A stretch of DNA of 64,000 nucleotides from Escherichia coli (GTDB lineage Bacteria > Pseudomonadota > Gammaproteobacteria > Enterobacterales > Enterobacteriaceae), in NCBI RefSeq assembly GCF_003334305.1, contig NZ_QOWS01000003.1; one strand, written 5' to 3'. Position numbers and translations under genes: made by a program. The notes beneath the pieces were generated by a model, which had not been told where the DNA came from, did not search any database, and worked only from the letters and a program-made list of their open reading frames with translations. Shown here piece by piece: positions 39,441 through 39,538 of the stretch (its first letter is position 1; every line of letters begins with the position of its first letter).

Positions 39441-39538
39441 ATCTATTCATCAATAGCAACTGATTTATAGATTTACTATTATTTTTCATATGGATAGAAA
39501 ATAAAATCTATTCAAGTATCTATTCACGAATCTATTCA
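39441..39538. repeat. Direct repeats of ATCTATTCA, three of them tandem at 12-bp period
   Basis: ATCTATTCA at 39441, 39506, 39518 and 39530; related ATAGAT cores nearby. Confidence 0.6.

Follow-up and report, generated by a model that had tools for sequence, protein, structure and literature searches.

A 12-bp direct-repeat array downstream of deoD as the putative promoter-proximal operator of the toxin-kinase gene hipH (yjjJ) in Escherichia coli

Known repeat operators and the array downstream of deoD

Among the described systems, the hipBA operators of Escherichia coli K-12 come closest to the locus reported here. They consist of several sites over the promoter of a Hip-family kinase toxin and serve autoregulation, and their reader HipB is a separate Cro/XRE-type dimer that binds palindromes of the form TATCC-N8-GGATA. 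HipH (YjjJ) is a toxin under active study as a kinase and reported DNase with links to c-di-GMP and persistence, and it has no linked antitoxin and no known regulator. In their 2021 phylogeny, Gerdes and co-workers stated that the N-terminal helix-turn-helix (HTH) of HipH 'may function to bind DNA' and suggested an autoregulation-type role for it without naming a site (PMC8262856). Our searches for a HipH operator, for direct repeats and for the 9-mer described below returned nothing relevant in the searchable literature (including PMC8262856 and PMC9948734). As far as that literature goes, neither a family-wide 12-bp direct-repeat operator nor its covariation with the HipH recognition helix was described before.

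Other systems offer partial parallels. The P2 C repressor, 186 Apl, Streptomyces BldC and OmpR/PhoB-type regulators also use non-palindromic, phased direct repeats at or near a promoter, to which several DNA-binding domains bind cooperatively; papers on regulators of this kind are PMC2995052, PMC7498355 and PMC5859096. Their folds differ, and their spacing is about one helical turn (10–11 bp, or 22 bp for P2 C). Plasmid iterons of the RepA type are direct repeats as well, each read by the winged helix of one monomer; they are 17–22 bp long, lie at origins beside a rep gene and control replication.

The DNA analysed here is a 64-kb stretch of E. coli sequence, called the window below. Its region from deoD to lplA carries the following features, where a unit is a copy of the 9-bp core ATCTATTCA.

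38656-39375, plus strand: deoD
39407-39434, plus strand: deoD terminator hairpin, AAGCCGGAG-N10-CTCCGGCTT followed by TTTTT, a perfect 9-bp inverted repeat kept in all aligned E. coli alleles
39441-39449, plus strand: distal unit ATCTATTCA, 65 bp before the first array unit and 5' of the promoter
39450-39505, plus strand: spacer homologous to the hipH core promoter; the K-12 spacer has equal length and only about 50% identity
39476-39481, plus strand: CTATTA, counterpart of the -35-like CTTTAC/CTATAC at other loci, with registers compared by eye
39502-39507, plus strand: -10-like hexamer TAAAAT, abutting or overlapping unit 1, placed by the matrix over 72 loci and by Reg-Seq
39506-39538, plus strand: proximal array of three ATCTATTCA units with a 12-bp period, identical in K-12-type strains
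39542-39544, plus strand: relic hipH start codon, placed by alignment with the hipH-bearing strains L002 and L004 and by the PGAP yjjJ start
39545-39830, no strand assigned: 286-bp segment replacing hipH, 41% GC versus 54% for hipH
39536-39799, minus strand: 87-codon XRE-type HTH gene, a pseudogene here (PGAP 'internal stop'); a neighbour outside the operator
39650-39799, minus strand: 49-aa HTH ORF, the remainder of that gene after a TAG at 39652-39650 (Gln50 to stop)
40847-39831, minus strand: lplA, with ytjB and serB beyond it

The first-pass annotation had reported four exact copies of ATCTATTCA, three of them in tandem at 12 bp, and this is borne out in count and coordinates. The copies lie on the plus strand at 39441-39449, 39506-39514, 39518-39526 and 39530-39538, and the proximal three (39506, 39518 and 39530) are spaced by exactly 12 bp. 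The whole window holds five matches where 0.40 are expected, far above chance, and none of 100 dinucleotide-preserving shuffles reached five. Tandem Repeats Finder gives a period of 12 bp and 2.8 copies at 39505-39538, and the two-unit pattern, with up to two mismatches, has no second occurrence in the 64 kb. The repetition is confined to the 9-bp cores, the 3-nt linkers being different (AGT and CGA), and the spacer has a GC content of 33%. Further ATAGAT/ATCTAT cores had been noticed nearby and are indeed present, one as an inverted ATAGAT at 39467-39472 and one as an ATCTAT at 39648, but the latter is the product of a G-to-A change at 39652 in this lineage. The placement of the repeats between the deo terminator and the HTH ORF was likewise right, with the qualification that they sit at the 3' end of that minus-strand ORF. 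The fifth, lone match (63349-63357) directly follows the stop codon of a frame ending in …MMNHQ and precedes a terminator-like hairpin (GGCCGGGTT…AGCCCGGCTTTTTT); it is compatible with chance.

A comparison of the array with the known systems shows both likenesses and differences. Like the hipBA operators, it is multi-site and lies over the promoter of a Hip-family kinase toxin, for which autoregulation is proposed here as well. Its units, however, are direct repeats in one orientation at 12 bp, and unlike HipB the presumed reader, a winged HTH, belongs to the same polypeptide as the kinase, with no antitoxin gene present. No TATCC/GGATA palindrome occurs in 39376-39545, and no hipB-hipA operon is present here. 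The strict 12-bp period also sets the array apart from the P2 C, Apl, BldC and OmpR/PhoB-type sites, and with this period successive units would be offset by about 50 degrees around the helix. The presumed HipH reader domain, possibly ArsR-like, is attached to a kinase, and the folds of the latter regulators differ from it. With plasmid iterons the array shares direct repetition and, as we propose for hipH, winged-helix reading by one monomer per repeat; its units, however, are 12 bp long and it is chromosomal, single-copy, syntenic and free of a rep gene. The TorR, CreB, PhoB and similar direct-repeat boxes have a period of 10–11 bp and were set aside because of this period and because the covariation described below favours HipH itself.

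The hipH promoter region in E. coli and in other proteobacteria

The comparison with K-12 upstream of yjjJ, which the first-pass annotation had proposed, places the array in the 5' region of hipH. K-12-type strains, MG1655 among them, match the window exactly in the distal copy and the three-unit array; in these strains the hipH/yjjJ ATG follows 3 nt after the last unit, at the equivalent of window position 39542, and there is no XRE gene. Homology with the hipH-bearing strains ends directly after this ATG and returns at the lplA stop codon; therefore the 1332-bp hipH coding sequence has been exactly replaced by the 286-bp segment. The segment does not resemble hipH, nor is it a rearranged part of that gene, and a search of the 64-kb window for hipH found none. 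Since hipH occupies the syntenic place (deoD-hipH-lplA or deoD-hipH) in E. albertii and many other Enterobacterales, it is ancestral here and the XRE segment is the newcomer. In a survey of 5426 complete E. coli genomes with the 455-bp deoD-lplA spacer as query, the window arrangement was found over at least 80% of the spacer in 4058 genomes (about three quarters). About 1300 genomes match the first 169 bp only, at 82–84% identity, and carry yjjJ (now hipH) there. The window itself thus displays three 12-bp units, TAAAAT at 39502-39507, an ATG position at 39542 and a distal unit 65 bp upstream (39441 to 39506), all elements of the hipH promoter-operator layout except the hipH gene downstream. 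Scans for sigma-70 promoters and terminators gave nothing useful in either the hipH or the XRE allele; the -10-like hexamer is missed by a simple promoter scan because the -35 is poor, and the promoter position was taken from the locus comparison and Reg-Seq.

For the XRE-type gene that now adjoins the array, the PGAP annotation of an identical genome gives a pseudogene of 87 codons at 39536-39799 on the minus strand, labelled 'helix-turn-helix domain-containing protein' and interrupted by an internal stop. Because it spans these coordinates on the minus strand, the repeats lie at its 3' end, and its full-length stop codon TGA (39538-39536) sits within the last repeat. The G-to-A change at 39652 that created the ATCTAT core is also the nonsense mutation, from CAG to TAG, that cuts the gene to 49 aa in the window's lineage. 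The gene is intact in the eight other strains examined for it; in E. coli B1.H1.1 it is frameshifted instead. The 87-aa protein family is restricted to Escherichia (E. coli, E. marmotae and Escherichia sp.) and Shigella, and its profile matches are weak and generic only, of the XRE/phage-regulator kind.

The promoter layout seen in E. coli extends over the HipH family. Within a comparison that covered about 90 other bacteria in all, we sampled 81 hipH loci, 80 of them being the best 80 of more than 578, with one genome per species from gamma- and beta-proteobacteria and HipH proteins 37–95% identical to that of K-12. Three TTCA motifs at exactly 12 bp within -100 to +30 of the start codon were found at 44 of the 81 loci, and a phased array with slight degeneracy (at least two or three units) at 69 of the 81, both counts including the best 80 of more than 578. 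As a control, periods from 8 to 17 were tried, and besides 12 only period 11 was matched, in one locus. The 911 kb of sequence flanking the same loci contained only three matches to the three-TTCA pattern, all in coding regions. The consensus of the unit is A-T-C-T-A-T-T-C-A-(t/c)-n-n, in which positions 5-9 belonged to the search criterion; positions 1-4, which did not, reach 67–79%. In the matrix over 72 loci, three units occur in 50 loci, two in 16 and four in six. The six bases before unit 1 read T-A-t-A-a-T in this matrix, a -10 hexamer; with such a TATAAT-like hexamer directly 5' of unit 1, the predicted transcription start falls within unit 1, and the array would take up the leader as far as the start codon.

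At nearly every Enterobacterales locus, a unit after the upstream terminator is followed by a diverged spacer and by two to four ATCTATTCA-like units, of which the last ends 1-3 nt before the ATG. Among the 23 Enterobacterales hipH loci, 12 have precisely 65 bp from the distal unit to unit 1 and 15 have 63-66 bp, and the DNA in between has diverged. The gene order is deoD-hipH-lplA in Enterobacteriaceae and deoD-hipH in Yersinia, Serratia and Erwinia. The same 12-bp layout is found in beta-proteobacteria (Nitrosomonas, Gallionella, Zoogloea, Comamonadaceae and Methylophilaceae), where hipH stands in unrelated contexts, some of them beside integrases, so that the array travels with hipH. At two non-enterobacterial loci (L215 and L218) hipH adjoins phage-type integrase genes, which suggests carriage on integrative elements. 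A second, more divergent Enterobacterales lineage of hipH, outside the deoD locus, was seen in Enterobacter cancerogenus, Pantoea and Rosenbergiella (L019, L020, L065, L067 and L070); it has two or three ATCTATTCA units, a longer leader of 15-30 nt and a visible Shine-Dalgarno sequence.

A genome-wide motif search, likewise proposed in the first-pass annotation, finds the array once per genome in about 5000 E. coli genomes, almost always on the chromosome. In a metagenome scan for three CTATTCA at 12 bp, 12 of 80 matches adjoin hipH and the remainder consists largely of perfect 12-mer satellites and repeats within coding sequence, so that this reciprocal test, with so few hipH-linked matches, is only moderately informative. 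Among the matches whose linkers differ by at least 2 nt, 11 of 18 are hipH-linked.

Published mutagenesis data bear directly on the K-12 promoter. In Reg-Seq, the yjjJ promoter was mutagenised from -115 to +45 around a computationally predicted zero at 4621716 (PMC7567609, supplementary files 5 and 13). Mapping of MG1655 onto these coordinates puts the three units at +17 to +25, +29 to +37 and +41 to +49. An RNA-polymerase-like signal was reported at -24 to +19 across growth conditions (PMC7567609). Its '-35' call (-18 to -6) covers CTATAC and its '-10' call (+9 to +22) covers TTAATAAAT and the start of unit 1; the RNA polymerase site of Reg-Seq is the promoter that our comparison points to. 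The Reg-Seq summary further lists two repressor sites, one at -24 to +18 that was assigned to MarA and one at +30 to +45 with no factor assigned (PMC7567609). The second corresponds to TCTATTCACGAATCTA and so takes in unit 2 and the first bases of unit 3. This call comes from the heat-shock data set only and is clipped by the end of the mutagenised stretch, and small repressor calls at +15 to +18 were made in two other conditions (PMC7567609).

HipH as the candidate reader of the repeats

An AlphaFold model of HipH residues 1-105, built from a 35-sequence alignment, has a pLDDT of 92. Residues 1-55 are modelled as three helices and a beta-hairpin wing, a winged HTH, with pLDDT above 90. In Foldseek the best PDB matches of this part are ArsR/SmtB-type repressors (SqrR, HlyU and CzrA), with an rmsd of 1.5–2.3 Å over about 53 columns at a non-significant E of about 0.08. 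ArsR proteins are dimers on inverted repeats, and their dimerisation helices are missing from the HipH model. Pfam recognises HipA_C in HipH and only weakly MarR_2 (E = 0.37), and a PDB search returned no sequence relative of HipH.

A comparison of the third helix with the repeats reveals that they change together. The helix reads SQ(A/P)TxSR at all loci carrying ATTCA units. In a first variant clade (Rheinheimera, Alishewanella and Alkalimonas) it reads DRSTVTR, and two to eight or more copies of ATTGATGCA lie upstream of the -10. In a second (Comamonadaceae/Burkholderiales) it reads (S/T)R(A/P)TL(A/G)R, and three copies of ATCGTT(T/A)CA end at the ATG. Both clades retain the 12-bp period. 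In the contingency table, SQ(A/P)TxSR goes with ATTCA in 61 of 75 cases, DRSTVTR with ATTGATGCA in 4 of 5 and (S/T)R(A/P)TL(A/G)R with ATCGTT(T/A)CA in 5 of 7, and the off-diagonal cells are 0; the table covers three clades and about two independent switches. Aligned, the three cores give A-T-x-x-x-T-x-C-A with variable positions 3, 4, 5 and 7. In the protein, residues 25, 26 and 30 vary, T28 is nearly invariant and R31 invariant, and in the model the three variable residues belong to the third helix or to its N-terminal end. The variable bases may thus pair with residues 25, 26 and 30. Such covariation is what would be predicted if HipH's own domain reads the units, and it is hard to explain by a host factor.

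Two observations concern the DRSTVTR clade. On a JGI metagenome contig (Ga0209504_1000261; L216, 450-600), a hipH of this class stands behind at least eight tandem ATTGATGCA copies at a 12-bp period, compared with the usual three, and the source annotation calls a 79-aa ORF across the array, which is probably spurious. Throughout the clade (L027, L046 and L214-L216), an additional ATTGATGCA unit falls in hipH codons 5-8 (…V/I-I-D-A…), so that sites bracket the promoter in a manner resembling the distal-plus-proximal layout of E. coli.

On this evidence, the array of the window and the copy at 39441 are probably the promoter-proximal operator and its distal partner, respectively, for the toxin-kinase gene hipH (yjjJ), with HipH as the putative binder and repression as the likely effect of binding. 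The assignment draws on the homology of this DNA with the hipH 5' region, on the conservation of the phased repeats across the family, on where they stand with respect to the promoter and on their covariation with the recognition helix. The full layout would comprise a distal unit, a weak sigma-70 promoter and two to four 12-bp units, each a 9-bp ATCTATTCA core with a 3-nt linker. The first unit would abut the -10 hexamer and so cover the transcription start, and the last would end 1-3 nt before the ATG. The N-terminal winged HTH of HipH would bind one unit per domain, head to tail, and occupancy of +1 to about +36 would block RNA polymerase. The resulting autorepression would take the place of a separate repressor such as HipB in classical hipBA modules.

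It has been reported that c-di-GMP raises hipH transcription only with the native promoter, that HipH binds c-di-GMP and that the HTH is required for toxicity and nucleoid localisation (eLife 2024, PMC11452175). The c-di-GMP data would fit a ligand-relieved autorepressor: because HipH binds the ligand and the ligand raises hipH transcription, ligand-bound HipH may leave the operator. A broader and more tentative picture, possible but short of likely in our view, is that HipH-family toxins are self-contained, ligand-responsive autorepressors that act head to tail on 12-bp direct repeats over the transcription start and on a second site 65 bp upstream, are released by c-di-GMP and follow a readable recognition code. 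This code would pair SQxTxSR with ATCTATTCA, DRSTVTR with ATTGATGCA and (S/T)RxTLAR with ATCGTTWCA. The comparison names a precise candidate operator, its architecture and three helix/repeat pairs, and the question of what the HipH HTH targets thereby becomes a simple experiment.

Among the other explanations, the one with most in its favour is that a separate host transcription factor, acting as a c-di-GMP relay or of the MarA type, regulates hipH and HipH itself does not bind. Reg-Seq gave the adjoining site to MarA and the array site to no factor, and no known factor accounts for the c-di-GMP control, which acts at the promoter; the marbox consensus is, for its part, unlike ATCTATTCA. Against HipH as the reader, a ChIP-exo study of 40 candidate regulators found zero binding sites for myc-tagged YjjJ in K-12 (PMC8464067), and expression from the native locus was probably very low in that study, whose authors viewed YjjJ as lacking an HTH (PMC8464067). 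We nevertheless consider a host factor unlikely, as two clades show a changed repeat together with a changed HipH recognition helix but an unchanged 12-bp layout, the element accompanies hipH into unrelated contexts and distant taxa, and the array is unique in E. coli genomes and therefore gives no sign of a regulon. Much less probable is a role at the RNA level, in which the units of the hipH mRNA leader would act on translation or be bound by a protein. With a start in unit 1, the three units would form the entire 5' leader, which has no Shine-Dalgarno sequence; against this, the distal unit, at its conserved distance of 65 bp, is located upstream of the -35 and the DRSTVTR-clade array lies upstream of the -10 and is thus untranscribed, both of which argue for a role at the DNA level. 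In addition, the covarying partner is an HTH recognition helix, and the window's strain has no hipH mRNA to regulate.

The first-pass annotation had read the array as an iteron or multi-site operator and named the 49-aa HTH product as a candidate binder. The adjacent XRE-type protein is a most improbable reader. The array and the gene physically adjoin, and the spacer of XRE-carrying alleles holds inverted partial copies (ATAGAT at 39467) that could be palindromic half-sites. The array, however, lies downstream of this minus-strand gene and overlaps its stop codon; as the gene trails lplA on the same strand by only 31 bp, its promoter must be elsewhere. The array is moreover identical in K-12-type strains without the gene and, as an ancient feature, precedes hipH in dozens of genera where the XRE gene was never present, its family being limited to Escherichia and Shigella, and in the window's strain the protein stops at residue 49. 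Of the two original readings, the operator is upheld by conservation, strict phasing, helix covariation and Reg-Seq. We give practically no weight to replicon iterons or to an end or attachment site of a mobile element, even though the repeats are short, phased and in AT-rich DNA and the locus is variable (hipH or XRE segment, and IS200 inserted in one strain): the adjacent genes include none for replication, partition or transposition, the array is present once per genome, its place after deoD is syntenic across Enterobacterales and its units measure 12 bp as against 17–22 bp. Chance repetition of a common low-complexity pattern is just as hard to credit. The spacer is AT-rich and metagenomes do hold generic 12-mer satellites containing CTATTCA, but the shuffles never match the observed count, the cores are kept while the linkers vary, and the layout is conserved across hipH loci down to 37% protein identity. 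The alternative that this is simply the conserved yjjJ promoter region with no binding activity was half right: the DNA does represent the promoter region of yjjJ/hipH, which in this strain has lost the gene, yet its conservation, phasing, covariation and Reg-Seq signal are the marks of a real binding site.

The array in hipH-less E. coli

With the hipH coding sequence replaced in the window's strain, the array is an orphan hipH operator with no cognate binder encoded at the locus, and it is most likely a neutral relic, since hipH is gone and the array shows no higher conservation than the adjoining DNA in a set of ten hipH-less E. coli alleles. Most of the sampled hipH-less strains have ATCCATTCA as unit 1; in the window's lineage all three units are perfect. 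As a weaker possibility, the orphan promoter, which would be unrepressed, might remain active and drive antisense transcription into the XRE gene and the lplA end. In K-12, ExcludonFinder lists yjjJ-lplA as a convergent overlapping pair (PMC12288877). Most E. coli strains, the window's included, have lost hipH and kept its control region, which is relevant when results on K-12 HipH are transferred to them.

Two strains show further changes at the locus. In E. coli B1.H1.1 (L005), exactly one 12-bp unit is deleted at the equivalent of window positions 39510-39521, as slippage would predict. In E. coli TB354 (L003, 1870-2328), an IS200C transposase gene lies between the deoD terminator and the distal unit, and the distal unit, the array and hipH are all kept despite this insertion.
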